DNA of 63,059 bases, counting the filler, from Stramenopiles sp. TOSAG23-3 (Eukaryota): the NCBI GenBank assembly GCA_900128585.1. It is 10 parts of 10 records of this genome, joined end to end, with 100 filler letters (N's around TTAATTAATTAA, not from the genome) between each part and the next. Parts side by side here need not be neighbours in the genome. Positions count along the whole stretch, not along the records: positions 27,597 to 34,381 come from LT643254.1; 9 more parts are not named here. One strand, 5' to 3'. The notes under the pieces are model-generated. The model was not told the origin of the DNA. It made no database searches and worked only from the letters and a program-made list of their open reading frames with translations. Within the stretch, counting starts at the first letter, position 1. Each line of letters starts with the position of its first letter. The translations under genes and the position numbers were made by a program. This document shows, piece by piece, positions 6,029 to 39,614 of the stretch.

Positions 6029-6319
6029 AAAAGTACATAGGTAGTCGAGCGGGCCGTCGGTTCTTGAATGGCCGATAACTGCTACCGGGACTAAAGTATT
6101 AGTGCCTGTACCGCAACTACTTTTACTTAAATGCTTCCAGAGACTATTGTCGAGGCGGCGCCGGCGAAGGGGGACCACTTTGCCATTTTACATTTGTGAA
6201 ATTTCTACAAACAAGGTGGCAGTTGCTAACATCAAAACCCAGTGTCTTAGCTCACGTTGAAGAGATTTTAAGTCCTACGCTTAAGTCCCAGCGCGAAAAG
6301 AGACCGTTGTCCATAACAA

Positions 6320-6816
6320 ATGCAAGCGTCTTTACACCTCCTTCTGCTGCTCGCCTTTGCTTCTATCGCTAATAGTCGCATCCCAGAGTTTATTGGAGAT
6401 AGTCAAAACGATAAAACTTCGCTGATAAGAAAAATTAATGACCAAAAGGTTAAGTCTTCGAGGCGAACTGGTGTTGCAAATTTGGGAGGCGGCTATTCGA
6501 CGGCTAAAACCAAGCAAGCAAGAACTGAAAGATTGCCTGATTACTTTGGTGGCGACGAACAATTTTTGAACAGTACCTCGATTCAACAAGAACAGCAAAC
6601 CAAGGAAATTGGCGTCGCAAGAAATGAATATGCGAGTAGCATTCGTATCCCCAACGCAAAACCTTCGCGGTTTTTAGAAAACCGCGGTGAACATAGAGGA
6701 GACTTGAAAATGCGAGAAGCGTTACTAAACCTGCGCTCAAAGAAGGATCGACGGCCGTTTCCGTTCGGGGGGCAAGGTTACCAGTATACACCAAGTCAAT
6801 ATAAACATCCCCCCCC
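6320..6816 (+). CDS. Secreted hypothetical protein, 3'-truncated by contig end
   Basis: ATG followed by a signal peptide (MQASLHLLLLLAFASIANS); frame open to the spacer. Confidence 0.7.
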
Positions 6817-6916
6817 NNNNNNNNNNNNNNNNNNNNNNNNNNNNNNNNNNNNNNNNNNNNTTAATTAATTAANNNNNNNNNNNNNNNNNNNNNNNNNNNN
6901 NNNNNNNNNNNNNNNN
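6817..6916. other. Artificial contig spacer
   Basis: 44 N + TTAATTAATTAA (stops in all frames) + 44 N. Confidence 0.99.
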
Positions 6917-9163: not shown

Positions 9164-9345
9164 AAAAGAGGATGATGAGTAAAGTAACTCGCCGTTAAAT
9201 CATGGTTTATTTATATAATGTGTGTTGTGTTATCTCGTAATACGAAGTAAGTAAAATGTCTGAACTTAAAACACAAGATTATAAAATTTACATCTCTCTT
9301 GTGTGAACCTGAAAAAAGGTAATATCATTGGTCTCTGCACCCAAT

Positions 9346-11388: not shown

Positions 11389-12184
11389 AGCTCGTCTCGT
11401 GAACGGAGAAAGGCACGCTTGAAGTGCAAACAACCTGGGCCGCTTATGTTTCAACAATGGTCGACGTTTTTGTGTGTCTATTTATCATCTTTATTCGGAA
11501 TTTTAAAGGCACCGGTCGAAGTGTCTAGTTTATTATGTCAATACTTATTATTAAAGCTTTGAGTCTTAGAGCGATACCGGACGACCGCTTGCTGAACAAA
11601 TAAAAAAATGATGCACGAAATCCATTATATAACGCTGTGTTACTGGTATTTTCTTTAAAACTTTAAACAGCATCATCATTATACATAACGGCTTCTTTCC
11701 TAATTATTATTTCCTATTACATTCGTCCTTATTACATTGTAATGTATAATATACATAAACACAGTATTAATTACAGTATTATATTATGATTAATGTGTGG
11801 TACGTAGCTGTAATTATTTTTTAACAGGTAAATAGTATTCATGCGAGTAATAACAATAAAATAAGGAAAGAGAAAGAAGAGGAGAGGAGGAAAGCGGGAT
11901 TGAGAATTGAGACAAGAAGAGGAGGAGGAGAAGGAGAGGGATGTTTATGATATTGATTGTGATCAAATTATTATAACGAATAAAGCATATTATATTTAGA
12001 CAACGATGTAATTCTAATAGTGAATTAATTAAATTAATCACAGAGTAAATGACGAAGGAAAGAAATGAATGGAAAACAGAATTAAGTTTACCATCCATTA
12101 CGCAAATACGGGGTCGGTAGGTAGAGCTGTTAGTAGACAAAGTCCAACCCGTTGACGGAGGGCGATTGAACGAGAACACCTGAA

Positions 12185-13713
12185 ATGGCGCTCTACTTGT
12201 TCTTGTCTTTGAGTCTCCTTCATCTGCTCGGGTTAACAAGTTGTTATAGTCTCAAAAAGCAGGCGTGGGCACGGTATAGCGCCTTGGAAACCGTGCTTGT
12301 TGATGCACGAAAGAGCAACACCGTTGCAAAGGACCTTTATTTTCATGTTACAATAGATTTTTTGACAGACGCTGGGGGGGAAGAATTCCATATTGACTGC
12401 CCCCTGTGGTCCTGCAACAGTTTAGAATCGCCTTGCACACCGATAGAGAGGCCCGAGCGAACGCAAAGAAGCAGCGATAAAATGTGGTGGGCCACGTTTA
12501 AAGATCGTATGGCAGATTTTTCTCATGCACACAAACTGAATGTTGTGTTTAAAGCCTCGAACCTTGAGGGTGGGCCAGGTACTTTAAGCGGTTGTAAGGT
12601 CCACACGAACAAATTATCGACGGCGTTTCCTTTAATCGGTTCTGATTCGATTAGCGATAGACTTGTCCTAATTTTAAATCATGCAAAGCAAGAAAGTCCT
12701 ATGCCCACCCTTCCTTTTAAAAACATGTCTTTCGTTGAAGCGAAACAGGCAATACCATCAAAGAATGACCCGTGTTATCGAGAACTGGTCTCCTATACAA
12801 ATTGTGTAAAAGAAAAGCAAGATGTGCGACTGTGCCCGAATGAAAACAGGCGGTTGAAAGATTGTCGTGTCCGAAGCACTATCAAAGAGGAAAGTGGCTA
12901 CGTAATAAATACAGCCAAGAAAAAAGAGACGAAGGGATACTCGTTTAGATCTTGCGGCGGTGCGGGAGGATGCCCATCTGCGGCTTCTGCAGGTGCACCT
13001 CCAGGGGAACTTGCTGGCAAAATGGAGTTGCCGAGCCCGCCAGTCTCAAGCCCTGGGGGGGAGGATGTCTCCGACTCTAGTGGGGTCGTTGTTATGAGCA
13101 TTGTTCATACAGTTATGGGGTCTCTTGTCCCGCAAACGGTGGACCATTTTGCAATTAAAGCCCAGCAGGAATGGCCAAGGGTGTTGACCGTCTCCTTGCT
13201 CAACGGGATTCCATCGAACGGCAACGGCAATGGTGCGGGCAGCGAGGGTCAACCATCTAATGGCGATGCTCCTGGAGAGTACAAATTTCGGGAAATTACC
13301 CCTGGGCCTAAGAGCAAACCCACCATTAAGATGTCTACGCCTCGGAAAATGATCGAGGTAGAAACGGAAGCAAGGCAATCGTTGGCAATGGCAGATAGAG
13401 AAGTAGAAAGGGCGGCTGAAAATTTAAAAGGCCTGCACATTTCACTTGCTAAACTGAAGGGTGAAGTTGCACTATCACTCAAAAAGTCAAAGGAGCACTC
13501 CAGCAAAGCGCTAGCTTTTGAAAGTGATGAATTTCGGCGCGGTATTGAAATGAAAAAAGCAAACATTCAACAAGAAGAAGCTGCGAGAAAGTTAGAGTTG
13601 GTAGCAAGCGTGGCGGACGAAATTAAAAAAGCTGCCAAACACTCTAACGATGCCGCAGAGTTATCTGCAGCGGCGGCTCTAAAGCTGCGCAGAATTAGAC
13701 GCGAAAAAAAGGA
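12185..13713 (+). CDS. Secreted hypothetical protein with Cys motifs and coiled coil, 3'-truncated
   Basis: Signal peptide MALYLFLSLSLLHLLGLTSC; CX9CX9CX9C at 12773-12865; frame open to the spacer. Confidence 0.75.
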
Positions 13714-13813: not shown

Positions 13814-15622
13814 CGTCAGTAGAGTGATCAGTAAGCGAATGTAACGGTGTGATAAATAGGCGGCGTCGTGGAGAACTTTCGTGTAGTGAAAGCGGGCCAT
13901 ATCCAGATCGCCTGATTCAAGTAGATTAAGCGCATAGTTTTCGCACGCGTCAAGTCTTTTGCAGGGAACGAAGTGCACTGTAAACATATTGGAGGCTGCA
14001 ATAGAAGCATTTGACCCCAGATCACGTACATGAACTTGCAAATTGGCACTAAGAGGATGGGCACCACCGTCAATAGCTGTCATCGGAAATATAGTTTTGA
14101 GTGGAAATCTGTACTCTACAGACGAGATATTGTTGCATACTTCCTGCAGAAGCTCTCGACCAGAGGTGACCGACAATGTATGCAAAATAGAAGCAGGCTT
14201 CGTCAACGTCACGCATACCAATGCTGTCGAACCTCCACGTTTTCCCCAAATTGCCCGAATCAGTAATGTTTCAAAAATGCTGCTCCCAAGGTCCGTGACT
14301 GGGAGTACTTGGTTTGGGTGCAAGTTTTCAACGCGTACAAAGGGAACGCCATCGTGCAATGTTTCCTTAATCAAATCAAGAAAAATTTGCGCAACAATGC
14401 CCATCGACGAGTAAATGCGAGCAAAAAGAGGTCCACTGAAGTAAGAGTGGATTTTTATGTTGTCGCCCAATGCCATCTGTAAGCTCTCGGTAAGACTTGG
14501 TGACGAAGGTTCGAAATACTCAAACTTTTCCCCGTGTCTTGATGTGTTTAGTACGGTCGAATTAATTGGCAAAGAAACCGGAATATCCACAAACCTGTAG
14601 CCCGGGCGTTTCTTGAAGTACTGGTTCGTGTGTATCACAACTGTACCGCATGACAGTGCTTCTAAAATACGGTCAGAATACTCGTGCAAACGATGAGGAG
14701 ATATATAGGCGTCGACCGAGTTGTAAGTGTTCACCCAGTCCATCGAGGTAAACAGTGTGTCCAAGAAAAGAATGTTTCCACTTTTGTACCACCGCATTGC
14801 CCCATTTGTATCCTTTACAGCCGTCTCGAGCCGGTCGCGCGAGCGCTTGCCGAACCCTTTCAAAAGCAGAACATGCTTTTTCGCGGAATTTTTGCTGAGT
14901 TCTACATTGTTCAAAAACTGAACAAAAGAGTGCAATAAAACGTCTATGCCTTCGCCCCAGACCATTTTTCCAGCAAAAAAGAGCACAATAGTATCCTCGG
15001 GATTACTAGAAATTAAGGAGAACAGCCAGGACCTCGCTTTTATCTTTTCCTTAAGCTGCAGGGGACGAAAAACATTCGTCTCGACTCCATAAGGCAGCAC
15101 AAACACATCTGCGCTTGGAAATCCACGGCCGACAACGTCGCTTTTTGTCTGCTCCGAAGGAACGACAATAGTGCAATTTACACTGTCGGTATGGCTGCCA
15201 AGAAGAGGACCTGCACGCACAGGGTTGTATAAAAATGTGAAAACGTGGTCAGCTCTATGCCTCGATGCGTGGGAAGGTGCAAACTTTCCGAACTGGATTA
15301 AAACGGTTTTTCTCCCAATGATGGTGGTGTTAACGTCCATTCCGCCTGATTCTTCGGGGCATGCAAGACCAACGCAAGTGTAGCTGTCAAAATCAAGGCC
15401 GTCCGCGGTGATTATGGCGGCAGTCATATGAGGTATTTTCCGCAGTTGGTCCGTAATCTCGTCAAGCACAGACTTTGAGTAGTAGCGCTGCTGAATTAAA
15501 TCAGGTTCAAATTCAGGGTAGTTTTCGACGATAAATTTGTACCGAACGGTTATACATCGCCCGGTTCGCAGAAGAGCACATACCACAAGCCCCAAAAAGG
15601 AAAGTGATAGTGGAAACGCCAT
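13814..15622 (-). CDS. GT-B glycosyltransferase (family 4-like) with signal peptide and start of a TPR-like region, 3'-truncated
   Basis: Motifs IVVPSEQTK, VLPYGVETNVFRP, FFAGKMVWGEGIDVLL, YNSVDAYISP, ILEALSCGTVVIHT. Confidence 0.8.
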
Positions 15623-16576: not shown

Positions 16577-19500
16577 ATGGCATCATTAGCCGAAGGAAAT
16601 GTTACAGAGAAGCTTGGGCAACTGCTGCTCGACACCCTGTCCCCGAATACTGATGTGCGGACAGCAGCCACAGCATCGATGTCGGAGAAGTCATTGCAGC
16701 CTGGTTTTGTGGTGTCTCTATTCGCGGTGGTAAAACAATCAAATCAGTCAGGGCAGTCTAGTGGGAAATGCCTCGCGTGCTGTACTTACCTGAAAAATTT
16801 TATCAAGAAGCACTGGAAACTAAAATCAGGCACGTTTCTTCTTCAGGCAGAGAGGACGGAGATACGCACGGCGCTGGTGGACTTACTCCTTGACAATTCC
16901 CTCAAAGTCGGGAAAAGCGCGTCTTCGCTGCTGGCAGAATGCATTCGCCTCATTGCTCTTGAAGACTTTCCAAAGGAGTGGCCAGAAGCCACCTCAAAAA
17001 TTAGCAGCATCTTTCAAAATTTGCAGGAAGACCCTGCAACCCTCGAGAGGGCAATCTTGTTCGTGTACGTCGTGGTGAAGCGGTACGAGTACTTTTTTGA
17101 CCCGTTGCATTCAAAATCGGATTCGCCTGCAGAGTTGAAACTGATTGCAGACGCGGTTCTTCCAAAACTAACTGCAATATTTACGAAGATGATGTCTTCG
17201 GGGTCAGCCGCGAGCTTTCCTGAAGAACAGAAACGGCTGCTAAGGATGATTGCTAAATTGTATTTTAGAATCACCCGATCGTACCTTCCAGACGTTGCCA
17301 AAACGGTAGCCCCAGATTTTCTTGGTGCTTGCATGATAGTTTTGGCAGACATCACTGCAGGGATGCAAGACGACGTGAAAGTACAAGATGAGGACTTTAT
17401 GATCGACGAAGAAGAATTGTCCCAAGAGTGGCGATTGCATAAAAGAGTTTTGAAGCTGTTCACGTCTATCCAATCTCGCCATCGGCAACTTGCAGAACCT
17501 TACATGGCCCGTCTGGTTGACCTCTGTAGGCTTGCGACACAGCGCCCGCGGGGAGCTTTGCCAGACCGAATATACTCACAATGCTTTGATATTCTTGCAG
17601 CCACGACGGCGCATAAATCGCACTACGCACTGGTGAAGAAACATTTCCCTGAAATTGTAGAAAAGTCCATTTTTCCACACCTCGAATTGTCCAGTACGGA
17701 CAAAGAATGCTGGCTAGAGGACGAGGATGAGTACGTCCGCTCAAACCTGAGCTTGGAGGACATGGAAATCGAAGACAATGAAATCGAATCTTATACGGGA
17801 CGAAAATCGGCAATGAACTTTTTGACTGTAATGTCAGACTACTCTGAAGGCAGCAACAAACCGGCCGGCGGTGGCAAACAAAAGCGTAAGAAAGGGAAAG
17901 GGAACAGCTCCAAGCATAGCACTCCAAACTTTCAAATTGTTTTGAAATACATCGATCGTCTCAACCATAACCTGACTTCCTCCATCAACGAAATCGCAAA
18001 GAGCCCTGTTGAAGAAGCTGAAAAAGAACGATCTGCGCTCGAGGTGGACCGTGAAAAGAAACAGTATGCCATATTGCTAGCTTACGGCGCAATGGCCGAT
18101 GCCATTTGCAAGTCTACTAAAGGAGCGGCTATTAGCACTTTTATCAGGAACAACGTGCAGCCCGCTTGCGACAAAAGCGGCGTCATGCTGGCGTTTCCGA
18201 ATTGGAAAGTGAAGCAAAGCCCTTACTTGGCCGCAAACGCCCTATGGGTAGGGGCGCAGTTTGCAGAACACTTTTCAATTCAGACCTTGGCGAATGAAAT
18301 GTTTGACCTCTCATTGGCAATGATGTCCACTCGTGATCCAGACGTCGAAGAAGTGGACGATGATGCCCCTACGTCTTGGAAACCAATCCGTGTGGTTGCC
18401 GGGCATGCTCTTCGAAACACCATAGAGTGCCATTTTGATGAGAGAGAAGACATCAAGGACCGGTTAAAAGTGCTCATTGAAAGTATGATTGCAATAGCGA
18501 ACGATGCAGATGATTCCTTGTCTTGTGATCGAATGAATTACACCGTGCTAGCTACGACCTTTGAATCTGCGGGAGTTGACGTGGTTCCATACGTTTCTCT
18601 AGTCGGCGGCCACTTGTTCCAGTGCTGCATTTCAGACTTGAACGAAGGAGGCGACTTACTTTCTTCTGCTGCTTTCAAGACAATGAATTCTCTCGGCGAA
18701 AACATCGAAGGCTTGCTAGATGAGCTGGAAAGTGCTGAAGCGGACGACGAAGACGCTCTTCCCAGTGGCTGGGATGTTATACAAGCGCTGGCTGTCATAG
18801 AGAAAGCGTTCGATCAGATGGCAGACATTTTGCTCCGGCTGTACACCACCCCTGACATAGAGTACCACCCAGATGTAGGAAGCATGATTCGGTGCATACT
18901 TAGCTTCATTAGCCCGGTGCGTGAAGACGACGAAGTACCCCTAACTCCAAGCGAACAGTACAGAATAAAATCCTCGTTGGGCGAAAAAGCTCGAAACGTG
19001 GCGTTTCTATTCTGCAACTCTTTGTCGGGCTCCGTGGATGATTTGATTCAGGCCGACGATGAGTTTCCAACATTTGTTTTGTTGGCCAAGTATTGCAGTA
19101 GGCATGAAGGTTTTTTTACGAAATCGCAAGATGGCCCGCAAACTTCTCCATTTGAAGCACTCATGCAATTGGCATTTCCATTGATGGAGTCTGGGATTGG
19201 AAGAGCCCCCAAAGCTGCATGCCGTATATTGATTTCTCTGTTCAACCATAAAAAGGATGACTGGGATGAATCGTTTCTCGAGCAATGCGTGACCTCGACT
19301 TTGGCGTGTGCAAGCTACAGCGTTTCGGACTTTCAGCTTGCTCAAATGACGTACTTGCTTAGTCATGTTGTCGTTAGGAACGTAGAACTTGCGATAAATG
19401 CTTCCAGGAACGCGGGAAGCCTTGGCGACCTTCTGATTGTTTTCAATAAAGGAATGCCGAATATAAATCGAACGCGGGGGCAGAAAATTGCAGTGTGGGC

Positions 19501-19990
19501 TGCGTTGCGTTTAGTGAATATGATTGGCCTGGGAAATAACTATTCTTCGGCAAACCGCAGACTGTGCGGCGATTTGTTTGCAAATTGTGTCTCGAACATC
19601 ACAGAAGATTGGAATGACATTGGCAACAGCGACGATGACGAGGAGTCCGAGGATGATTCTTCGGGGTCGTCAGATGATGAAGAGGAGGAAGAAGAGGGCG
19701 ATAGCGACGCCGGTGCATCGGAAGAGGAAAATGAAGAAGAGTTTTTGGCACGCTACGAAGAGGAAGCAAAGAAAATGGCTAAAAATGATGGTGGCGACGA
19801 GGATGACGATGATGAAATTGATGTCCTTTTCGAGTGTGACGACGAGCAGTATGTGTTCGCAGAGATGGACGTCCAAGCAAAGTTTATCGATTGGTACACT
19901 CGAAAGAAGAGCGTCCTTGAAGCGGAAGTCGCAAAACGGAAGACAGTCACAAATTTTGACAAGTTTTTAGTGAGCTTAACAAAAAATTAA
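16577..19990 (+). CDS. Importin-beta family karyopherin (importin-7/8-related, PLANTKAP-like)
   Basis: IBN_N-type start (LLLDTLSPNTDVRTAA...YLKNFIKKHW...IALEDFPKEWPE), W-x-E-D-x-D-E-Y motif, HEAT-like helices, acidic C-terminal tail. Confidence 0.9.
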   Translation: MASLAEGNVTEKLGQLLLDTLSPNTDVRTAATASMSEKSLQPGFVVSLFAVVKQSNQSGQSSGKCLACCTYLKNFIKKHWKLKSGTFLLQAERTEIRTALVDLLLDNSLKVGKSASSLLAECIRLIALEDFPKEWPEATSKISSIFQNLQEDPATLERAILFVYVVVKRYEYFFDPLHSKSDSPAELKLIADAVLPKLTAIFTKMMSSGSAASFPEEQKRLLRMIAKLYFRITRSYLPDVAKTVAPDFLGACMIVLADITAGMQDDVKVQDEDFMIDEEELSQEWRLHKRVLKLFTSIQSRHRQLAEPYMARLVDLCRLATQRPRGALPDRIYSQCFDILAATTAHKSHYALVKKHFPEIVEKSIFPHLELSSTDKECWLEDEDEYVRSNLSLEDMEIEDNEIESYTGRKSAMNFLTVMSDYSEGSNKPAGGGKQKRKKGKGNSSKHSTPNFQIVLKYIDRLNHNLTSSINEIAKSPVEEAEKERSALEVDREKKQYAILLAYGAMADAICKSTKGAAISTFIRNNVQPACDKSGVMLAFPNWKVKQSPYLAANALWVGAQFAEHFSIQTLANEMFDLSLAMMSTRDPDVEEVDDDAPTSWKPIRVVAGHALRNTIECHFDEREDIKDRLKVLIESMIAIANDADDSLSCDRMNYTVLATTFESAGVDVVPYVSLVGGHLFQCCISDLNEGGDLLSSAAFKTMNSLGENIEGLLDELESAEADDEDALPSGWDVIQALAVIEKAFDQMADILLRLYTTPDIEYHPDVGSMIRCILSFISPVREDDEVPLTPSEQYRIKSSLGEKARNVAFLFCNSLSGSVDDLIQADDEFPTFVLLAKYCSRHEGFFTKSQDGPQTSPFEALMQLAFPLMESGIGRAPKAACRILISLFNHKKDDWDESFLEQCVTSTLACASYSVSDFQLAQMTYLLSHVVVRNVELAINASRNAGSLGDLLIVFNKGMPNINRTRGQKIAVWAALRLVNMIGLGNNYSSANRRLCGDLFANCVSNITEDWNDIGNSDDDEESEDDSSGSSDDEEEEEEGDSDAGASEEENEEEFLARYEEEAKKMAKNDGGDEDDDDEIDVLFECDDEQYVFAEMDVQAKFIDWYTRKKSVLEAEVAKRKTVTNFDKFLVSLTKN

Positions 19991-20709: not shown

Positions 20710-21660
20710 GGGGGGGGGGGGGGGGGGGGGGTCACAACAATAATATATAGACACACTACTATTATAAAACTATTAATAATATCTTTTCTTTTTTTCAGAC
20801 GACTTCCTCTCGTTTAGTACGCGTACTTTAAAACTACGAATTCGACAGGAAGAAGTCACTACCCGGTCGTCGAGCTATACTGTTCAGCTGCTGTAAAGGT
20901 GTAATAAAGATATTGGTACAAAATAATAAAATATTATACTTCAACTACGAGGAGAACTTGAAAAAAAGGAAGGGATATTTCAATATTAAACCGGTTGTAT
21001 TCCTGGTTAAACTTTTACCCCCCCACTTTTCAGACTTCTATTTTCTAGATTGAGTGTTTGGTCCCTCCTCAAAAAGTTCTTTATTGTGTCCCTGTTAAAT
21101 TTTAGTTTAGTATATTTTCTAGAGCAGAGAAAGAGATTTTTGAATATCTGGAATAGTCAAGTCTATTTATTATTGACTGACTAGACTATTGTCATCACTT
21201 TACTTTTATTTTATAGACACTCCTCGTATCATGCGATGATCATCTACGTATCAGTTAAAAAATTGTAATAATTTTATTTTTTAAAACGATGATCGATCCG
21301 CGATATTTCTTCGAAAGAAGTAGAGTAAACAAATACGAACGACGACACAGCACCACCTTCTATTATCAAAATGTCATAATAGACTGACTACTGAAAGTAT
21401 AATAATAATTAAGCCATTATTTAGTTAGACACTCTAATAATAATACTATTATTTTTATTATTATTATTATCACTGCCTATTGATCAGCCGATTATTCATA
21501 AGAGAATGAACCGTGTAGATAGATAAGGTGGAACAGAAAATTATACAGTCATGGAGAGAAGATATGTGCTCTCAGGAGTGTATCTACGGAACGCCTAAAT
21601 TAATTATCTGTAGCTATAGCTTGGGACAATAGGCGTAGAGTTAGTATACTCCTGGTTTAG

Positions 21661-27596: not shown

Positions 27597-27638
27597 AACA
27601 ACCCCATTATCAATCTATAATCACTCCTCACCACAACA

Positions 27639-28145
27639 ATGAAACACACATACGAAGCACTACGATACTGGCTCAACTTTGTGGTTAAGCATGGGAAAGA
27701 GTACATGAACGGACCCGCCACCTCCTTCTATTGTACCGAGCTTATCTTTGTGTTCACCAACATTGGGTTGCGCCATAAATGGTTCCAATTGTTCGATGGC
27801 TTTGACGAAATCACGGAGCTCCCCGAAGATCCCAGCGACTTGGGGAAGCTCGCCCTTTGCTTTGATGTCAAACGGATTACAGACGACTGGCAGATAATTC
27901 AAGTCAAGCTCAACGATATCATGTTCGCCCACTTTGACATGGTACACCTTAACCCACTCACGGATCAAGAGGCGCACGAGGCCCTCATGGCTGCTGATCC
28001 CATGTACGTCAGTGATTTGGACGCCTACTTTGAAGTTGACAACGAGTTTGCCTTTGACCCTAACGAATCCTTGAGCTTGACCCCGGAAAATAATATTTAT
28101 AGGCACGATCCACTGCCAATCTCAACGCACGATGTCGTCGTCTAA
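27639..28145 (+). CDS. Hypothetical acidic protein (168 aa)
   Basis: ATG in ACAACAATG context; coding-like codon bias; no recognised motif. Confidence 0.75.
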   Translation: MKHTYEALRYWLNFVVKHGKEYMNGPATSFYCTELIFVFTNIGLRHKWFQLFDGFDEITELPEDPSDLGKLALCFDVKRITDDWQIIQVKLNDIMFAHFDMVHLNPLTDQEAHEALMAADPMYVSDLDAYFEVDNEFAFDPNESLSLTPENNIYRHDPLPISTHDVVV

Positions 28146-28256
28146 GCATAGTACATTNNNNNNNNNNNNNNNTAAATGTTTAATGCTATCTTGTAGTCTG
28201 ACTAGTCATATATTATTATGTACCTTAAAATTATTATGAAGTTTCTAAGTAATGTC

Positions 28257-29069
28257 TTATACCTCAACCGACTCAAGGAGCTCCCTGAGGGTTTGCCCGT
28301 GATTGTTTCGAATTTGTTCCGCTGCTCTGCTCTTGTTGTATCTTTTCCATACTTCAGGCTTCCTCGTCCTTCTAAACGTGTGGTAGTTGGAGATAAAGCA
28401 GCCAATTTTGGTGGCCGATCCAAACTTGAAGTGTTCTCCGTGCCTTGTTTTGAGCTCGTTCATGAGCATGGCGTCGTAGGCGGGCGTCCCAATAGGCCGT
28501 TTTCGATAGGTTTTCACCGCGAAGCCCGTGACTTGAATGAACCCGTCCTCTGTCGGCTTAACGAAGTACCGCTTGTTCTGTAGCTGAAAGTGCCACTCGT
28601 CGTCTGTCTTGACTCTTCCGTTTTGAACAGCAGCCACCATCTTCTCATGGGACTTCTTCTTGTTCTCTTTGGCCGGTGATCTAGACTTCAATCCGTGCCA
28701 TTGTCCCTCCTTCATCGGATGGGTGCGCTCCCTTACGCCGCCGTACTTCGCTAGTCGTATGACAGCAGTAGCAGTACCAGAGTCCGTGCGGTGGGCGTCG
28801 CGGTTGCACTCTTGGCACACACGAACAAGGCGCCCGAATTTGCGTCTCCTCCGCTTGCATACAACACACTTAATCGTAGTTGATTTTTGCTTCGGCTTGT
28901 CCTTCTCTATCATCTGTGTCAGCTTCTGGGCAGCCTTCAACCTCAGAAAAGGATGGTAGGGGCGGTACCCCTCAGGTAATGTGTAGTCCTTCCCATTGGC
29001 CCGCCCTCCATTGAGAACTTTGGGTTTGAGGAACTTTGCTGCCTTTGTACAGACCGTGTAGGGTGCCAT
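28257..29069 (-). CDS. Basic hypothetical protein with CxxC-x13-CxxC zinc ribbon (270 aa)
   Basis: CVVCKRRRRKFGRLVRVCQEC; start context CTATAAAAAATG. Confidence 0.8.
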   Translation of the reverse strand: MAPYTVCTKAAKFLKPKVLNGGRANGKDYTLPEGYRPYHPFLRLKAAQKLTQMIEKDKPKQKSTTIKCVVCKRRRRKFGRLVRVCQECNRDAHRTDSGTATAVIRLAKYGGVRERTHPMKEGQWHGLKSRSPAKENKKKSHEKMVAAVQNGRVKTDDEWHFQLQNKRYFVKPTEDGFIQVTGFAVKTYRKRPIGTPAYDAMLMNELKTRHGEHFKFGSATKIGCFISNYHTFRRTRKPEVWKRYNKSRAAEQIRNNHGQTLRELLESVEV

Positions 29070-29306
29070 TTTTTATAGTTGTTTTTAACTTTATATTTGT
29101 AATGTTTGCGTGTATTTTTTATGTTTTAATTCTATCTGGTAATCTTTGGGACAAATGTCAACTTTCTATATTATAATCTCAAGTTTCTTTTTGTCCCCGA
29201 TCACAGCATTTGCTTTTCGGATGGATGATGTAGTGTAGTATGATAGAATAATAATAATTTGTGCGTGATATAAAAAAAATGAATCCATTAACCACTGGTT
29301 AAGAAA

Positions 29307-29949
29307 TTATGGTGAATTACTGTAGTACCCCATGTCGTCCTCGTTGTCGTCAAGTTCCTTAAAGGAGCCGAACTCGTCAGTCTTCCATTCTGTTAGTACG
29401 TAATCCTGTTCTTCGAGATATTCGTACTCGCCTTTAAGGAATTCGTTGTCGATGAAGCGGTGCATGTCGCGGATAAGGTTTCCGGGTATGATCTCAACTT
29501 CGCAGTACCCTGTGTGCTTGTCCAGTCCGGTGATTTCCTTTCCTTCCTTGTCAAAGAACTTGGCGTAAGGTTTGTCAGCCTGTACCTTCCCGAACCATAC
29601 CTTTCTGCCTTTCCTGCCATAACTCCTTTATATCACCCTTGAAAACGTTGGTATCAGTGTCGTCGTAGTGCTTCCACCTCCATAGGCTAAAGAAGAACTC
29701 GTACTCTTCCTGTAAGGGAGTGGCATTTGCTTTAAAGATGTCACCACTCTCTCGCTTCTCGTCGTTGATTTTCCGCCTCTTCTGGATCATCTCTTTATAT
29801 CTATTGATATTGAGTTGATCCACTGGGGACCTTGCTATGCCGTTGACATGATGAACGCTAGCTCGCGCGTACCACTTCTCGGTCTTTGTCATGGGGACTC
29901 TGACTGCTGGCTTCATCGGTGGAGTTCTTTGTTTGGTAGTGTGGACCAT
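29307..29949 (-). pseudogene. Hypothetical gene of about 213 aa interrupted by a 1-nt frameshift near 29602
   Basis: The ORF from 29949 stops at 29575. Removing one A from CAGAAAGGTA gives ...QERQKVWFGKVQADKPYAKFFDKEG...DDMGYYSNSP* to TAA at 29307, with the same codon style. Confidence 0.7.
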
Positions 29950-30056
29950 AGTTGATTTGTGTTTGTTGATTGCTTTCTTTTGATATAGTTTAGATACTGT
30001 TCGGTTTGGTTTACTTTTACTATGTTTTGTAATTAGTTTACTTTTTATATTTTCTT

Positions 30057-30120
30057 TTATGGTCTGTTGGTCTTATGGTCTGTTGGTCTTATGGTCTGTT
30101 GGTCTTATGGTCTGTTGGTC
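30057..30120. repeat. Perfect 16-bp tandem repeat x4 (TTATGGTCTGTTGGTC)
   Basis: Read directly from the sequence. Confidence 0.98.
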
Positions 30121-30170
30121 TGATAATGGGATGTACCAAATGGGATGTTGGGATTTTTTCCGATTGGAAT

Positions 30171-30322
30171 CCCATTGGGAATTGTGGCTATTATTCGACC
30201 TATTACCCAATGGAAATTGTGGCTATTATTCGATACCCAATGGGAATTGTGGCTCTATTATTCGATACCCAATGGGAATTGTGGCTATTATTCAACCCAT
30301 CCCAATGGGATCCCAATGGGAT
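30171..30322. repeat. About 30-bp repeats with palindromic core CCCA(A/T)TGGG
   Basis: CCCAATGGGAATTGTGGCTATTATTCGA-type units at 30171, 30206, 30236 and 30268; extra cores at 30301 and 30312. Confidence 0.95.
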
Positions 30323-30528
30323 TAATATTATTTTTTTTGTAATTATCAATAATCAGCTCCGAATCCCACTACCCCTACGCCCGTTACACACCGTGAATGG
30401 GATCTCAACCACCGGGATCGTACCTTCGTAAGATATAAAACTAAAATAACATTTAAACTAATGTAATTAAATTATCAAAAAGTTGTCAACTATATACAAA
30501 TTAAAACAAAAATCAACTCTGACTCGTC

Positions 30529-31521
30529 ATGCAGGTCTACCCTAACGCCCTTTGGGCTACCATTATCAAATCGCTGGTCGTTGTTATCGGCGCCCACGGC
30601 CATGAAAACCTCAAGCCACCTGAGGAGTGTGAAGCCGTCAATTGGGATCGTAGTCCTATGCACAACAAGGAGTACGTTGAGAATGCCGTGCTCATCGATC
30701 ATCGCCCTTTTGATCCAAAAATCAACGCTACCTTCGTCGTCTGGAACTCCGCTCTACCTCATTGCAATGGAACATGGAACGATAAGCTCTCTGGGAAGAA
30801 GCGAAAACGCGGCTTTTCCCCACAGCTGACTACAAAGGGCCATTTCGTCTCTGACATGGAAGCAGCATCGGAATACGCCCACGAGCATGGATTCTGTGTT
30901 GTTGAGCTCGATCTCTCTTTGGAAGAGTACAATCGCCTGATCACGCTTTATCGACAGTCCGTTCAGCTGGTAAACAAGGAGATTATCGATCCAGAATCAC
31001 CTACCTGTCCGGATATCAACAAGATAAACGCCGATCACCTGCCGCCATACAAGACTAAAGGTCTCCAACAATTTTATGGCTTCTGTCACACTCCATTCGC
31101 TAACGCCTGTCGCGAAATAGCAGCTATTAAGCGCCTGTTCAGCATACTGTACGACTGCCCCCAACATGCTATGTACTGCTCGCTCGACGCGTCTGCTGTG
31201 GCAATGGCTACTGGTTCAAATGACAATTGGCTTCATAGAGATCAGACAAAAGCTAAGGTAAATCACGACTGTTGGCAGGGCACACTCTACCTCAAGTCTC
31301 CAACAAAGAAGTACAGAAGACTGGCGCAAATGGTAGCACACCATCCTACTACCCACGGTCTTGCCAATCGAGAAGATCTGGAGAACTACGCAAAGGCTAA
31401 TGGCGCCTGCTTAACACACAATAATCACCGCGTGAACAAGGAAGCGGAAGGCTTAACTGGTCATCTCGCAATGAGAAAAGAACAGTATGGAAAGAGGTAT
31501 AAAACTCATACTACTAAGTAA
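30529..31521 (+). CDS. PhyH-like Fe(II)/2-oxoglutarate dioxygenase with rearranged motif order
   Basis: HGFCVV, GLQQFYGFCH, SLD, WLHRDQ, CWQGTLYL, RLAQMV..HP; the blocks LVVVIGAH and FVVWNSALPHCN sit at the N-terminus. Confidence 0.8.
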   Translation: MQVYPNALWATIIKSLVVVIGAHGHENLKPPEECEAVNWDRSPMHNKEYVENAVLIDHRPFDPKINATFVVWNSALPHCNGTWNDKLSGKKRKRGFSPQLTTKGHFVSDMEAASEYAHEHGFCVVELDLSLEEYNRLITLYRQSVQLVNKEIIDPESPTCPDINKINADHLPPYKTKGLQQFYGFCHTPFANACREIAAIKRLFSILYDCPQHAMYCSLDASAVAMATGSNDNWLHRDQTKAKVNHDCWQGTLYLKSPTKKYRRLAQMVAHHPTTHGLANREDLENYAKANGACLTHNNHRVNKEAEGLTGHLAMRKEQYGKRYKTHTTK

Positions 31522-31539
31522 TTCTTTACATTATTTTAA

Positions 31540-31905
31540 TTACATACTACAGTATACACAATCGCATTCACCGTACGATATCATTCCCGGAGTTGTGTAT
31601 GGCACTATCTCGCTTCCGTCCATTGGGAATGTTGCCCTGTTCTTGTACAGAGGATCGCAACAGTTCTTGTAATCCCAGCTCAAGTAGTAGTCGTCGAAGT
31701 TGATTTGGAGATGGGAAACGTACTTCTTCGCCGGTCGGCCATTCATGATGACCCTCAGGTCCTTCCCGTTCCAGTAGCCCTGTAATTCCATCGTCGTTTG
31801 TAAGCGCATTTTACAGGTTGGCTCCGGTCGTAACACCTCGTCGCGAACCCATAGGCCCTTGAGGATTAATGGAGTAAACTCTTCTACGTCTGATCGTAAC
31901 TGCAT
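31540..31905 (-). CDS. Hypothetical protein (121 aa)
   Basis: AAAATCACAATG start; Cys-rich C-terminus (CC...CxCxxC); ends 18 nt from the convergent gene. Confidence 0.7.
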   Translation of the reverse strand: MQLRSDVEEFTPLILKGLWVRDEVLRPEPTCKMRLQTTMELQGYWNGKDLRVIMNGRPAKKYVSHLQINFDDYYLSWDYKNCCDPLYKNRATFPMDGSEIVPYTTPGMISYGECDCVYCSM

Positions 31906-32076
31906 TGTGATTTTATGTTATATTACGCAATGTTTATGGGTTTTCTAGTTAAATGTTAACGATTTCTTTCTGTTCCTATAATTTATGTAATTTCGGTAGG
32001 TTGGTAAGTCGGTAAGTCGGTTGTAGAAGGTTGTAGGTTGTAGAAGGTTGTAGGTTGTAGAAAAAAAGTAAAATAT

Positions 32077-32526
32077 TTAGCAGTCATTTTGAAGACACCC
32101 ACCACAATTTCTTCCAGCGCACAGCACAGTCTTAGTGTACATGTAGGGCGACATGGGATAATTGTGGCCAGAAGAAAACCACGCCTTATTGTTATCAATT
32201 TCGACATCCACATTGCAAAGTTTCGTATGTTTCGGCGCCCTGATTTTCAAAGTAACTTCGTACTCGTCTTCTTCGTCTCGTTTGCGTTTTTTCAATGGAG
32301 AATAGGCCAAGTTCGGTGATTCTTCGATGAACATAGGCTGTGTTGTGCTAGTCCCACAGTTCTTCTTCCAGCCGAGTCTAGAGCCCATATACTCGTTGTA
32401 ATCGGGATGAAGTTCTGCTAAAGCAAGAGCCATCGGGTGCGGCTCAGTAAATCGTTCCCAATCCCGTACTTCAGCTTCTTGGATCGCGCTGTCAACGAGA
32501 TAATCTACGAGACAACTGATAAACAT
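32077..32526 (-). CDS. Hypothetical protein with NLS-like PLKKRKR and C-terminal Cys cluster (149 aa)
   Basis: AAACAACTATG start; CAGRNCGGCLQNDC terminus. Confidence 0.75.
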   Translation of the reverse strand: MFISCLVDYLVDSAIQEAEVRDWERFTEPHPMALALAELHPDYNEYMGSRLGWKKNCGTSTTQPMFIEESPNLAYSPLKKRKRDEEDEYEVTLKIRAPKHTKLCNVDVEIDNNKAWFSSGHNYPMSPYMYTKTVLCAGRNCGGCLQNDC

Positions 32527-33042
32527 AGTTGTTTTTGGTTAGTAAATGGAGTTTTGTTAGTTTGTTTGTTGGTTTGTTAGTTTGTTTGTTTAATGTATTC
32601 ATTCTTATTTCTTTTTCGCAAATGGAATTCCCAATTGTACTAAAACTCGTGCGAGTAATGTAAGTGTCAACCACTACCCAATGCGATTCTAATTATTTAT
32701 TGATTCAAAAAAAATAAGATTTCTTGTTTCGATGCTGTCTCTATGTTAATTCAAATAATGATTAAAAAAATGGCCCATACGGCTGCTATTCCTATGTTAT
32801 TTTCGACCAAAAATCATTAATTTATTTCTATGCTGTCTTCATGTTAATGAAAATCCCAACTAATCCCATCTGGTACCACAATTTTTTTTCTTCATCCTCC
32901 CTCCAAAATTTTTTTGTCTTCACGAACGCAAAAGGTTCTGGTCCTCCCGGGAAATTGGAAACATGGAAAGTAAATAAGTATAAAATAATATAAAAGCAAA
33001 TGAAACACAAATAAAAATAGCAAATACTAATACAAAATCACA

Positions 33043-33504
33043 ATGGAATCTCAACAATGCGGTATTTGTTTTGAGGATTTGGGGCCCGCTAAGCGAAAAG
33101 CCACCACTGACGTATGCGATCATCCATATTGTGTGGGCTGCTTGGAAACATGGGCGTTAAAAAACGATACATGCCCGACGTGTCGCCGTACGTTTACTGA
33201 AGTCAAGACACACGGCAAAAGGAAGCGCGAAATCACCGTTAGAAAGTTGAGGACGGATATGGTGAAGGCGAAGAAACGAACGAGAAAACGAGTACTAAGA
33301 CGCTTCAAACGCCAATTTCAAAAGGGCTACGCTTACCGTTTCAAACGATCGGTGACAATCGCTGGTGTGCCTTTACAAGAATGGGGATTGATACCACGTT
33401 CTGAAGCTACTGAGAACGATATTGCCGACATGGACAAAGCAAAAAGTTTGAAATGCTGTCTGGACGATAGAGGGGGGAGGTTCACACCCATTGTACTTGA
33501 ATAA
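33043..33504 (+). CDS. RING-finger (C3HC4) protein, putative E3 ubiquitin ligase
   Basis: CGIC...CDHPYCVGC..W...CPTCR; basic C-terminal region. Confidence 0.9.
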   Translation: MESQQCGICFEDLGPAKRKATTDVCDHPYCVGCLETWALKNDTCPTCRRTFTEVKTHGKRKREITVRKLRTDMVKAKKRTRKRVLRRFKRQFQKGYAYRFKRSVTIAGVPLQEWGLIPRSEATENDIADMDKAKSLKCCLDDRGGRFTPIVLE

Positions 33505-33522
33505 CTTTATAATATACTTTAT

Positions 33523-34101
33523 TTATTCATTATTTATCCATCTACACCCATTCCATACACGATTGTAGAGGATATTATCGCTTTTACTCATGTTCTCGGT
33601 ACCCCATAATGGCTGGAGGTTGGTGTAATGAAAACATCGCCTTTGCTGTTCGGGATCGCTCAAGTCAAAGGAAGCACAGGGCATCATGTGATCGATGTGC
33701 CATGTTCCTTGGTTCTCCCATGTCATTCCGGGTTGGAACTGCTTTTCCATATGATCCATTAAGTGTGATATGGAACAGCCCACTAACTTCATGGTTCGAG
33801 CGCTCTTGTTCTTGCCTTTGAGTGCTCTATGTAATTGTCTTCGTAAAAGCTTTTTAAGTCTGTACTGTGGATCAGAATCGTAACGTTCCTTAGCGCGTGC
33901 ATTTTTTCGTTTCTTGTATTCCGGGCGCTTGTTGCTCTTCCTTTCCGATGCACGAGCTTTCTCCGGGTTGTTTTGTTTCCACTTCTTGGTAGATGCCTTC
34001 ACACACACTTTGCATCGGTATGCAAGCCCATCGGGTGATTTGGATCGCTTGTTAAACTCCGTGAGCGCTTTGGTTTGGTTGCATCCGGTACAGGTCTTCA
34101 T
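33523..34101 (-). CDS. HNH/endonuclease VII-like putative homing endonuclease of the kind common in NCLDVs and phages
   Basis: N-terminal KTCTGCNQTK..EF......DG....CKVC; LVGCS, FQPGMTWEN, WHIDH..PCASFDL, CFHYTNLQPLW..EN.SK. Confidence 0.85.
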   Translation of the reverse strand: MKTCTGCNQTKALTEFNKRSKSPDGLAYRCKVCVKASTKKWKQNNPEKARASERKSNKRPEYKKRKNARAKERYDSDPQYRLKKLLRRQLHRALKGKNKSARTMKLVGCSISHLMDHMEKQFQPGMTWENQGTWHIDHMMPCASFDLSDPEQQRRCFHYTNLQPLWGTENMSKSDNILYNRVWNGCRWINNE

Positions 34102-34262
34102 TTTGATTCAATCTGAGGCTTTAAATACCACAATTTCCATTCCAGTGCGTTTCTAGCCACAATTCCATCTCTTCCACATACGAATGGGACCTGAGGGTCC
34201 TTACCGGTCAGGGGGTCCACTATCCGTACCTCCATCCATCCATCATCCATCACTACTGTACT

Positions 34263-34324
34263 ATCCCAACATCCCAACATCCCAACATCCCAACATCCCA
34301 ACATCCCAACATCCCAACATCCCA
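34263..34324. repeat. 8-bp tandem repeat (ATCCCAAC) x7 plus a partial copy
   Basis: Read directly; runs into the motif ATCCCATTTGGTACAT. Confidence 0.98.
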
Positions 34325-34381
34325 TTTGGTACATAAAAATAATAAAAAATAGAATAAATAACAAAAGAAAAACATAAAACT

Positions 34382-38303: not shown

Positions 38304-39614
38304 ATGTCGTCGATGCCGGCTTCCGTTTCCGTGGGTAAAGCGAGCGTCGCGGTGATTGGGTTGATGTCGGGGACTTCGCTGGACGCTGTGGACGCGTCTC
38401 TGGTTTACGTAGAACAGTACGGGGAGCTGCTGCTCGGGGCGGGTGAGTCCATAGAGGTAAAGATACCCAGTGAGTTACGCGGAAAGTGTTTAGCATTGTC
38501 AAAAACGTGCGCGGCAGACGTTGACTTTGCCCGGTCCTGCGCCGCAGTCTCCGTCGACCCTCGGAAAAGTTTCCGCAACAAAGACATTGCTGGACTAGAA
38601 TTAGAAATTACTGAAATACACGCTCGGGCTGTGGCCAAACTGTTGAACAAGATATCATCACCTTCGCCAACAGGAGATGCCCGCGCGCGCCCTCCGGTCA
38701 GCCTCGTGGGCTTCCACGGCCAAACGATATACCACCACCCTCACGGTCCCCCAAGTGAGCGCTTCACGTGGCAACTCGGCGACGGAAAACTCTTGGCCAA
38801 ACTGACAAACATGAAGGTTGTGTCGCAGTTCCGCTTCCAGGACGTTGGTCGGGGTGGCGAAGGGGCTCCACTGGCTCCTCTGTATCACGTTGCGCGCATG
38901 CGCTTGTCGTTAGCCGCCAACCACGTGCCCGCTGGGGTCGTAAGTGCAGGCGGTGCGACCGGGACTTCGATTGCCATTTTGAACATTGGTGGTGTCAGCA
39001 ACGTAACGTTCCTGAGGGTCGACAGCGCTTCAAACCAAAGCGCCCCGTTAGCCTTTGACTGTGGGCCGGGGAATGCATTGATCGACGACTTTATGCACCG
39101 TAAAACTGGTACTCCAACGGATCAAGATGGTGTATGCGCTGCCGCTGGCAATCCCCGAGAGGACATCATCAACGAGGCTGTGCTGAACTATGCCGCATAC
39201 TTGTCGCGCAAACCACCAAAGAGCTTGGATCGGAACACGTTTTCCGAGGGCATCTTCTCTAGCGAACTTTTTTTTAATCGGCTTTCGATAAACGACGGGG
39301 CAGCAACACTCGCGCGCTTCACTGCAGTCTGTATTGCCATGTCAGTCTCCCTGGTAGGCGAAGATCATGCCCCAAAAGTGTGGTACGTCTGCGGGGGAGG
39401 CCGCCACAACCCTACCCTGATGAAACACATCATGGAAGAGGTCTGCGTCCCCGTTTTTCCCGTAGAGGCCCTTGAGTGGAACGGCGACAGCCTGGAGGCG
39501 GAGTGTTTTGGATACTTGGCTGCACGGGTCGTTGCTGGGAAGCACACTTCGCTTCCAACGACGACCGGGTGTTCGGAGCCCGTATGTGGAGGGTTGGTGG
39601 ATATGCCAGTTTAG
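38304..39614 (+). CDS. anmK: Anhydro-N-acetylmuramic acid kinase (AnmK/levoglucosan kinase family)
   Basis: IGLMSGTSLD, GFHGQT, GGEGAPLAP, LNIGGVSN, AFDCGPGNALID, PPKSLDRN, CGGGRHN, EAECFGYLA, PTTTG. Confidence 0.92.
   Translation: MSSMPASVSVGKASVAVIGLMSGTSLDAVDASLVYVEQYGELLLGAGESIEVKIPSELRGKCLALSKTCAADVDFARSCAAVSVDPRKSFRNKDIAGLELEITEIHARAVAKLLNKISSPSPTGDARARPPVSLVGFHGQTIYHHPHGPPSERFTWQLGDGKLLAKLTNMKVVSQFRFQDVGRGGEGAPLAPLYHVARMRLSLAANHVPAGVVSAGGATGTSIAILNIGGVSNVTFLRVDSASNQSAPLAFDCGPGNALIDDFMHRKTGTPTDQDGVCAAAGNPREDIINEAVLNYAAYLSRKPPKSLDRNTFSEGIFSSELFFNRLSINDGAATLARFTAVCIAMSVSLVGEDHAPKVWYVCGGGRHNPTLMKHIMEEVCVPVFPVEALEWNGDSLEAECFGYLAARVVAGKHTSLPTTTGCSEPVCGGLVDMPV

Follow-up and report, generated by a model that had tools for sequence, protein, structure and literature searches.

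The window analysed here is a 63,059-nt stretch of DNA, filler included, from the Stramenopiles sp. TOSAG23-3 assembly GCA_900128585.1, and it consists of a chain of ~6.8-kb contigs. Exactly one of these, LT643254.1 at window positions 27597–34381 (6.8 kb, hereafter the focus contig), raises the question whether it belongs to the genome of a protist or to a large DNA virus associated with it. An earlier note, made from the DNA alone, had proposed a virus. We conclude that the focus contig is probably an accessory-gene segment of an undescribed large double-stranded DNA virus of eukaryotes, most likely a nucleus-dependent and possibly temperate member of the Nucleocytoviricota, present in organism A, the label carried by three sequencing runs (X1, X2 and X3) from two samples of one study. 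In outline, the data support its origin in a large eukaryotic DNA virus that has not been catalogued, of which it would be a fragment, or in an endogenous copy of such a virus. Membership of the nucleocytoplasmic large DNA viruses (NCLDV) is our best guess.

The focus contig is not ordinary host DNA

The focus contig is bounded by N44-TTAATTAATTAA-N44 joiners and contains a 15-N gap at 28158–28172. It carries eight small open reading frames (ORFs) without introns, arranged in divergent and convergent pairs (Table 1), and all eight genes of the earlier note were recovered in place. The remaining contigs of the window have one to four ORFs of at least 150 aa each, the longest of 1137 aa. The domains found on them are eukaryotic (importin-beta N-terminal, teneurin-type EGF, LDL-receptor repeat, FAM184), so that "protist assembly" is a reasonable description. 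None of these other contigs showed kinship to the focus contig or to the seven related loci (L001–L007) described below.

The DNA preceding the genes has a composition of its own. In the 60 nt before the ATG, the focus genes have 52% A, 20% C, 6.9% G and 21% T, versus 30% A, 19% C, 21% G and 30% T for 19 host genes. The leaders end in an AAA(A/T)CA(A)C(T/A)-type motif, at the ATG or up to 12 nt upstream of it. When searched as AAA[TC]?CA[AC][CT]?[AT] within 25 nt of the ATG, the motif is present in 6 of the 8 focus genes versus 1 of the 19 host genes, which bears out the similarity of leaders noticed earlier. Because host genes lack it, this motif is not the general start context of the host. 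A TATA-like box, read by eye, lies 20–65 nt upstream of the ATG in seven of the eight focus genes. All eight end with a TAA stop, versus 8 of the 19 host genes. Codon usage differs as well: the correlation of relative synonymous codon usage (RSCU) between focus and host genes is 0.17, whereas the host set, when split into halves, correlates with itself at 0.77, and the focus genes reach 0.77 with bases 1–13000 of L001. In the comparison of k-mer profiles with host contigs that the earlier note had proposed, tetranucleotides and GC content did not clearly separate the focus contig from them. Codon usage, leaders and stop codons together mark the block as something other than ordinary host DNA.

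The block is part of a larger element with two gene classes

The seven loci L001–L007 come from one metagenome scan with an alignment of the PhyH-like protein encoded on the focus contig. L001 (19.9 kb) is colinear with the whole focus contig and adds about 6 kb on the left and about 7 kb on the right. Its flanks contain further ORFans with the same kind of leader. The right side encodes a tyrosine recombinase (Phage_integrase, E 1.1e-23; XerC-like, 9e-38, below the NCBIfam equivalog cut-off), an S-adenosylmethionine methyltransferase with a weak DOT1 match, a protein-kinase-like protein and, at L001 18293–18853, an HNH gene positive in Pfam (PF01844, 50 bits). Two families are paralogous within L001, with two EndoVII/HNH copies and two orf227-like genes. 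L002 extends about 3 kb further on the left, where it has another RING gene and a further, complete HNH copy. L006 is a more distant relative, with a PhyH-like protein 68% identical to that of the focus contig; its small ORFs include the PhyH-like gene, two RING genes and one gene of orf227 type. No tRNA was found in L001, L002 or L006.

The right part of L001 (13898–19682) is of a different kind. Four of its eight genes (13898–14557, 17211–18287, 18293–18853 and 19245–19682) start with TAAATG, its GC content at third codon positions (GC3) is 0.435, and its RSCU correlates with that of the left part at r 0.03. These compact TAAATG-start genes are a second regulatory gene class within one element. 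The class with A/C-rich leaders comprises the eight genes of the focus contig together with the integrase and methyltransferase genes of L001. A 7.1-kb contig of run X2 covers L001 12680–13205 and 13884–19770, so the two parts are linked in an independent assembly too.

Two proteins of these loci were also noted. At L001 13024–13923, a 299-aa protein with a KKRKR cluster gives a sub-threshold ELM2 match (E 0.001). Judged by eye only, its N-terminus may be chromodomain-like. The bin holding its start is the deepest in RNA run X15 (38.5). At L006 2506–3030, a 174-aa membrane protein gives a sub-threshold PAP2_C match (E 5.6e-5), and its SGHT motif resembles that of sphingomyelin-synthase-like enzymes. 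This may be a lipid-modifying gene.

A probable, divergent PhyH-like dioxygenase

We read the 330-aa protein of the focus contig, partly from its predicted structure, as a dioxygenase of PhyH-like type that has diverged from the family. Eleven relatives came up in a word-based search, some of them on metagenome contigs of 97–223 kb, and a profile search against 1.84 billion representatives returned 192 matches at E ≤0.001. The protein itself matched no Pfam family and did not reach the PF05721 cut-off; Pfam PhyH was above cut-off in 7 of 30 distant relatives scanned, and no family was found in the other 23. A search of PDB sequences with the profile gave no match, and NCBIfam had none for either this protein or the HNH nuclease of the focus contig. 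An AlphaFold2 model built from 33 sequences reached a mean predicted local distance difference test score (pLDDT) of 91.3. In an exhaustive VIA-align comparison of this model with the PDB, the matches had Z-scores from 8.4 to 3.3 and were mostly 2-oxoglutarate (2OG)-Fe(II)/PhyH-clan oxygenases (GIG2/DUF1479, Z 8.4; YbiU, 8.0; EvdO1, 7.3; human PhyH, 5.3). The 24 chains at Z ≥5 were, among the rows listed, nearly all 2OG oxygenases of the PhyH clan. The best matches of the model in BFVD were the phytanoyl-CoA dioxygenases of Pithovirus LCPAC001, Tupanvirus and CeV-01B (E 1.6e-4 to 4e-2, TM-score about 0.4, with 0.42 at E 1.6e-4).

The predicted double-stranded beta-helix fold, the conserved HxD motif and the Pfam PhyH matches of distant relatives thus liken the protein to the PhyH family. 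Within the motif, H236 is invariant and D238 is kept in at least 90% of the 33 sequences. H272, H297 and H300 are candidates for the distal histidine and are invariant only among seven close relatives. In contrast to the family, the protein has no Pfam match of its own and carries an N-terminal extension of ~95 residues and a KKRKR cluster.

A multi-copy EndoVII/HNH nuclease

The 192-aa nuclease matches PHROG 1035 ("endonuclease VII") at E 2.8e-28 over residues 1–176, and the HNH/EndoVII-like nuclease that had been claimed is thereby confirmed. Pfam HNH (PF01844) was not matched at E up to 1, and a PDB sequence search gave no significant match. The match to the PHROG profile, the W-H-x-D-H...N...N core and the N-terminal Cys pairs liken it to T4 endonuclease VII; H135, D137, H138, N161 and N170 are invariant in 15 sequences. 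In contrast to named phage HNH proteins, which are 29–40% identical among those listed, the focus gene has basic "KKxxQNNxEK" repeats, variable in number, between zinc ribbon and nuclease part. The family is large (7541 proteins at E <1e-5). Its closest members, 60–75% identical, come from marine metagenomes, where their contigs reach 104 kb, and a 52%-identical relative sits on a 280-kb contig. When the HNH alignment was searched against IMG/VR, at least 579 of 598 candidate stretches matched, and the carriers included both contigs labelled as giant-virus metagenome-assembled genomes and phage-sized contigs. As the family occurs in phage records and on such phage-sized contigs, it is not diagnostic of NCLDV, and the view that it is typical of them was overstated.

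The gene is multi-copy and probably mobile. Copies or remnants occur twice per locus, in L001 at 2493–2670 (a remnant) and 12102–12728, and in L002 at 4476–5063 and 13011–13493. In run X2, HNH copies lying on opposite strands are joined to each other (2492 to 12738), as would follow from inversion or recombination through the nuclease genes.

The other genes and their conservation

The RING protein matches Pfam zf-RING_2 (PF13639) over residues 4–48, the full profile, with 37.8 bits against a cut-off of 27.3 (E 2.3e-9). This agrees with the earlier identification; judged from its domain, the protein is probably an E3 ubiquitin ligase. Six of the eight proteins had no Pfam family. One of these six is the PhyH-like protein, and five ORFans remain, the same number as in the earlier note. 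Basic clusters ([KR]x4 or longer), previously claimed for four proteins, are present in six of the eight.

Orthologues from L001, L002, L004 and L006 allowed the ratio of nonsynonymous to synonymous substitution rates (dN/dS) to be estimated for seven of the eight genes, the orf227-type gene being broken in the focus contig. The ratios were 0.03–0.08 for the PhyH-like gene, 0.06–0.10 for orf149, 0.15–0.16 for the RING gene, 0.22–0.29 for orf121, 0.33 for the EndoVII/HNH gene, 0.35–0.49 for orf168 and 0.60–0.75 for orf270. With values of 0.03–0.75 throughout, all seven genes are therefore coding and under purifying selection. Identity between strains varies gene by gene from about 79 to 99.4% (99.4% for orf168, ~80% to L001 for the HNH gene), a mosaic typical of recombining populations.

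The orf227-type gene has lost 44 nt at 29609/29610 relative to L001, whose copy is intact and encodes 227 aa. The deletion shifts the frame and is flanked by GGCAG(G/A)A direct repeats; either the gene is truly defective or the assembly is wrong here. Since L001 8138, the place matching the deletion, is also where a contig of run X2 ends, the site may be polymorphic. The paralogue in L001 is recognisable at E 8e-4 and has the N-terminus and promoter in common with this gene. A winged-helix fold was considered for the orf227 family and is not claimed, as the model had a pLDDT of 65, weak matches (Z ≤4.5) and no BFVD match. For orf270, the ESM Atlas provided no lead, the best score of 0.81 being at noise level.

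Table 1. Features of the focus contig (window positions).
Feature	Position	Strand	Evidence or remarks
Whole contig	27597–34381	.	Segment of larger virus-like element, probable; colinear with L001 6094–12911; blastn blocks of 83–99% identity
orf168, ORFan, acidic C-terminal half	27639–28145	+	No Pfam/PHROG family; orthologues in L001, L002, L004
orf270, ORFan, CxxC...CxxC and KRRRRK cluster, fast-evolving	28257–29069	-	No Pfam family
orf227-type gene, two-copy paralogue family, frameshifted	29307–29949	-	44-nt deletion relative to L001; paralogue at L001 3299–3754
Divergent spacer	29950–30528	.	(TTATGGTCTGTTGGTC)x4 at 30057–30121; ATCCCATNTGGTAC at 30133–30146(-)
Four 30–35-nt repeats containing ATGGRAATTGTGG	30163–30300	.	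Within divergent spacer 29950–30528
Putative PhyH-like 2OG-Fe(II) dioxygenase, 330 aa, divergent	30529–31521	+	Profile search, model, structure matches
Convergent spacer, 18 nt, AT-rich	31522–31539	.	13 nt in L001 and L002
orf121, ORFan, Cys-rich C-terminus	31540–31905	-	No Pfam/PHROG family
Tandem repeats (TCGGTAAG)n and (GGTTGTAGAA)n	31993–32062	.	Between orf149 and orf121; also L001 10543–10639
orf149, ORFan, KKRKR cluster, Cys-rich C-terminus	32077–32526	-	No Pfam/PHROG family
Divergent spacer	32527–33042	.	ATCCCATNTGGTAC at 32863–32876(+); (TTTG)n at 32553–32591
RING-finger protein, long basic tail (KRKR, KRTRK, RRFKR)	33043–33504	+	Pfam zf-RING_2
Convergent spacer, 18 nt, AT-rich	33505–33522	.	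18 nt in L001, 12 nt in L002
Endonuclease VII / HNH-type nuclease, 192 aa, N-terminal CxxC...CxxC zinc ribbon	33523–34101	-	phrog_1035
Upstream/divergent region	34102–34381	.	ATGGAAATTGTGG at 34128–34140(-); ATCCCATNTGGTAC at 34319–34332(+)
(ATCCCAAC)x7.8	34263–34324	.	Focus contig ends in repeats

Distribution and RNA libraries

Words sampled from the focus contig were found in 20 runs from 13 studies. The shares were highest in organism A (0.93 in X1, 0.56 in X2 and 0.55 in X3), followed by 11 marine or seawater metagenome runs (0.29–0.42), and by four RNA-library runs together with a fifth that is recorded as RNA and is probably DNA (0.07–0.15). Contigs of X1 and of X2 (up to 7 kb, at least 85% likeness) each cover 30 of 30 bins of L001, including the recombinase–kinase part. 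No loose end of the X1/X2 contigs on L001 could be assigned to host DNA, and no host junction was found among them. As for the RNA libraries, X15 (oligo-dT) covers 24 and X16 (poly(A) metatranscriptome) 12 of the 30 bins. Contigs from these two runs lie inside orthologues of five of the eight genes (orf270, PhyH-like, orf121, orf149 and RING) and inside several flanking genes. A 1126-nt contig of the oligo-dT library covers the orf270 orthologue, and the X16 pieces listed all stay inside genes or extend past a gene end by no more than 10 nt.

Viral affiliation and alternative explanations

The reading of the contig as a virus segment holds in so far as the block is foreign to the host contigs, belongs to an element of more than 20 kb and carries virus-type genes; neither a hallmark gene nor a host junction was found. 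The ten nearest ESM Atlas clusters listed for the L001 kinase (scores of 0.96–0.98) are 93–100% viral; the commonest phylum is Nucleocytoviricota in nine of them and Uroviricota in one. The PhyH-like protein and the kinase had no relative in 185,579 prokaryote genomes, and the focus contig had no DNA match among 50,697 phage records. As far as these searches reach, the bacterial or phage contaminant that would refute the earlier note did not show up. A cluster look-up of seven relatives gave no informative names. With these negatives, and with no relative beyond HNH in the IMG/VR scans (see below), the lineage seems uncatalogued and eukaryote-associated. No published description of the element surfaced in general literature searches, which cannot show it to be unpublished.

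Several observations weigh against this interpretation. The GC content of the contig (43.4%) and its GC3 (0.55) are those of the host, and its tetranucleotide correlation with four host contigs (0.77–0.79) is only slightly under their mutual values (0.83–0.91). The frameshift in the orf227-type gene is what would be expected of a decaying endogenous copy or of an assembly error. The HNH family is present in 126 named phage records, all below 60% identity. Foldseek found no match in the PDB for the PhyH-like model. The link between the kinase and NCLDV comes from language-model features only, and the sequence search with this protein gave five unnamed matches. Six IMG/VR scans (PhyH-like, kinase alone and as an alignment, orf270, integrase and HNH) returned HNH relatives only, and the 80 HNH loci kept from IMG/VR share no other gene of the element except for two weak RING matches. 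The NCLDV capsid family PF04451 was absent from three HNH-bearing IMG/VR records, which has little weight as the control genomes were silent too. The RNA-library contigs are no proof of transcription. Finally, no capsid, DNA polymerase B (polB), packaging ATPase or transcription factor was found in Pfam scans of 8 window, 17 L001, 13 L006 and 2 L002 proteins, reaching over the 19.9 kb of L001 and ~3 kb of L002. The hallmarks considered were double-jelly-roll capsid, polB, A32 ATPase, VLTF3 and D5 primase-helicase; none was matched, and the virus class is for this reason unproven. Nor does the DNA covered contain a gene for an HK97-fold capsid, a portal, a terminase or triplex proteins, the marks of Mirusviricota.

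Could the block be a giant endogenous viral element, fixed and decaying in a chromosome of the protist and no longer infectious? This is the alternative that survives best, and we regard it as possible though improbable. In its favour, the 19.9-kb stretch is almost completely present in the two organism A samples, GC and GC3 are like those of the host, the 44-nt deletion disrupts one gene and a tyrosine recombinase is linked. However, a decaying chromosomal copy accords poorly with a codon usage far from that of the host (r 0.17), with purifying selection in seven of seven genes tested and with promoter-like signals that are intact and conserved between strains. The 79–99% gene-by-gene mosaic is as in a recombining virus population, and the X1/X2 contigs aligned to L001 contain no host junction.

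A large DNA virus from outside the Nucleocytoviricota, for example a mirusvirus or another nucleus-replicating lineage, appears unlikely. It would account for the missing NCLDV hallmarks, for the absence of any linked IMG/VR contig, and for the clusters resembling nuclear localisation signals (NLS) and the TATA-like boxes. The kinase is nevertheless nearest to NCLDV clusters and the PhyH-like fold nearest to NCLDV proteins in BFVD, both weakly.

A real virus of another marine eukaryote, ingested by, attached to or co-sorted with the protist cell, is distinctly unlikely, even though the sequence is widespread in marine metagenome runs and a virus in a single protist cell can have been eaten instead of infecting it (PMC7541821). 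All L001 bins are covered in two separate samples of organism A, and the GC content matches this organism.

Even less can be said for a large non-viral integrative element, carrying cargo and moved by its tyrosine recombinase without a virion, which we consider very unlikely. The XerC/D-like recombinase and the selfish HNH genes in several copies would suit such an element, as would the lack of a structural gene in L001 (19.9 kb) and ~3 kb of L002. Against it, the nearest Atlas clusters of the kinase, those listed, are all viral, and the right part of L001 has virus-like gene starts, compact and of TAAATG type. Metagenome contigs of 97–280 kb, moreover, carry PhyH-like and HNH relatives, and this is a length that protist chromosomes would seldom attain in metagenome assemblies and giant viruses often would.

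Ordinary host genes or a bacterial or phage contaminant were already disfavoured and are hardly credible: although 126 phage records have the HNH family, the phage proteins listed are 29–40% identical, versus 60–75% for relatives from marine metagenomes. The contig matched no phage DNA and the marker proteins had no prokaryote relative. A eukaryotic setting is indicated by the RING finger, by the NLS clusters and by the contigs from poly(A) libraries, and codon usage and leaders are unlike those of the host.

Regulatory signals and a proposed mode of action

The spacers between divergent genes contain shared motifs. The 14-nt ATCCCATNTGGTAC has three exact matches in the window, all in the focus contig and one per divergent spacer, where 0.01 are expected; no shuffle gave three. 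Tandem arrays specific to the strain accompany it in every divergent spacer. In L001 it occurs at 2329, 8701, 11444 and 12906, with a variant at 15956, always between divergent genes. For ATGGRAATTGTGG, six matches with at most one mismatch were found, five of them in the focus contig, versus 0.24 expected. A 27-nt inverted repeat (96% complementary) connects spacer 29950–30528 with 34308–34334. L002 has GGTCCATCGGTCC-type repeats where the repeat arrays of the focus contig and L001 sit. At L002 9680–9740 and 12365–12390, GGTCCATCGGTCCATCCC-type repeats were observed at the places of ATCCCATNTGGTAC in the window and L001. Spacer elements turn over between strains while their positions are kept, and this replacement at the same places is as expected if proteins bind there, at sites that evolve fast and are shared by the genes on either side.

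The two convergent spacers of exactly 18 nt described earlier are real in the focus contig, but do not follow a rule: the first measures 13 nt in both L001 and L002, the second 18 nt in L001 and 12 nt in L002, so that only their being very short and AT-rich is conserved. Hairpin terminators in both were tried and rejected, the z-scores of -1.7 to +0.7 not being significant, and a scan for bacterial-type promoters and terminators stayed near shuffle level.

Each gene forms a monocistronic cassette, with a G-poor leader that ends in an AAA(A/T)CAAC-type motif, a TAA stop, a short AT-rich 3' spacer and, in seven of eight, a TATA-like box upstream. On the view that the focus contig belongs to a nucleus-dependent large virus, the leader motif could act as an element-specific promoter or initiator, read by a viral polymerase or, given the TATA-like boxes, by host RNA polymerase II. 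The repeat arrays and ATCCCATNTGGTAC would be putative binding sites driving both neighbouring genes. A nuclear phase is inferred from the NLS-like clusters and TATA-like boxes. The proteins with KKRKR-type clusters (six of eight) might then be imported into the nucleus and target the host, with ubiquitin ligation as the part of the RING protein and hydroxylation as that of the PhyH-like enzyme. The EndoVII/HNH gene could either be selfish, encoding a homing nuclease, or serve to resolve branched DNA (junctions). The XerC/D-like recombinase would, by analogy with phaeoviruses, permit integration.

Two known systems offer comparisons. According to a published account (PMC12993054), nuclear entry is part of the phaeovirus cycle, and a tyrosine recombinase brings about integration. 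Like these viruses (such as EsV-1) and the "xanthoviruses", the present element is large, has a linked tyrosine recombinase and NLS-type clusters, and is present in every organism A sample examined. Unlike in phaeoviruses, no capsid or polB gene is linked and no attachment site or host junction was seen in the DNA reached, and the host is an uncultured marine unicell instead of a brown alga. The punuivirus, a giant endogenous viral element of Chlamydomonas, combines host-like latency genes with virulence genes under virus promoters containing AAANAACATAAG (PMC13692296), and integrates with a retroviral-type integrase (PMC12993054). The likeness consists in two gene-start classes and two codon usages (r 0.03) within one element. 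The leader motif of the focus genes loosely recalls the A-rich AAANAACATAAG upstream of the virulence genes as given there (PMC13692296), but the motifs differ. In contrast to the punuivirus, no introns were seen in the focus element.

A more ambitious version of our preferred reading is tentative, and rather improbable as a whole. It would make the element part of a cosmopolitan, uncatalogued, temperate and nucleus-dependent giant-virus lineage of a marine protist with two interleaved regulatory gene classes. One would consist of leader cassettes with repeat-array enhancers for nucleus-targeted, host-manipulating proteins (RING ligase, PhyH-like dioxygenase, chromo-like protein and DOT1-like methyltransferase), and the other of compact TAAATG genes. 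By analogy, this would be a marine counterpart of the latency/virulence architecture of the punuivirus, with integration via a tyrosine recombinase as in phaeoviruses.

Other observations in the window

Some features outside the focus contig were recorded. At 38304–39614, on a host-like contig with locally up to 57% GC, lies an AnmK-type anhydro-N-acetylmuramic acid kinase (E 5.9e-65). This is mainly a bacterial enzyme, and it may stem from a transfer long ago or from a contaminant contig. A 69-nt tandem repeat of 3.7 copies (4807–5060) lies in the AT-rich half of the first contig. Twenty-two consecutive G (20710–20731), probably a sequencing or assembly artefact, open another contig. No Rfam family was detected in the window or in L001.

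Significance

The hosts of marine giant viruses are mostly unknown. The presence of this element in two samples of one uncultured protist and in ocean metagenomes provides a concrete host–virus pair to follow. That no IMG/VR relative beyond HNH was found suggests a lineage missed by current viral catalogues. The ATCCCATNTGGTAC motif, the G-poor leaders, the exclusive use of TAA stops and the codon usage are signatures sharp enough to recover the rest of the genome. Should the recombinase-linked block prove to be latent or integrated, an uncultured marine protist would join the algae as a setting of giant-virus latency, and the small nucleus-targeted proteins would be candidate factors for control of the host.

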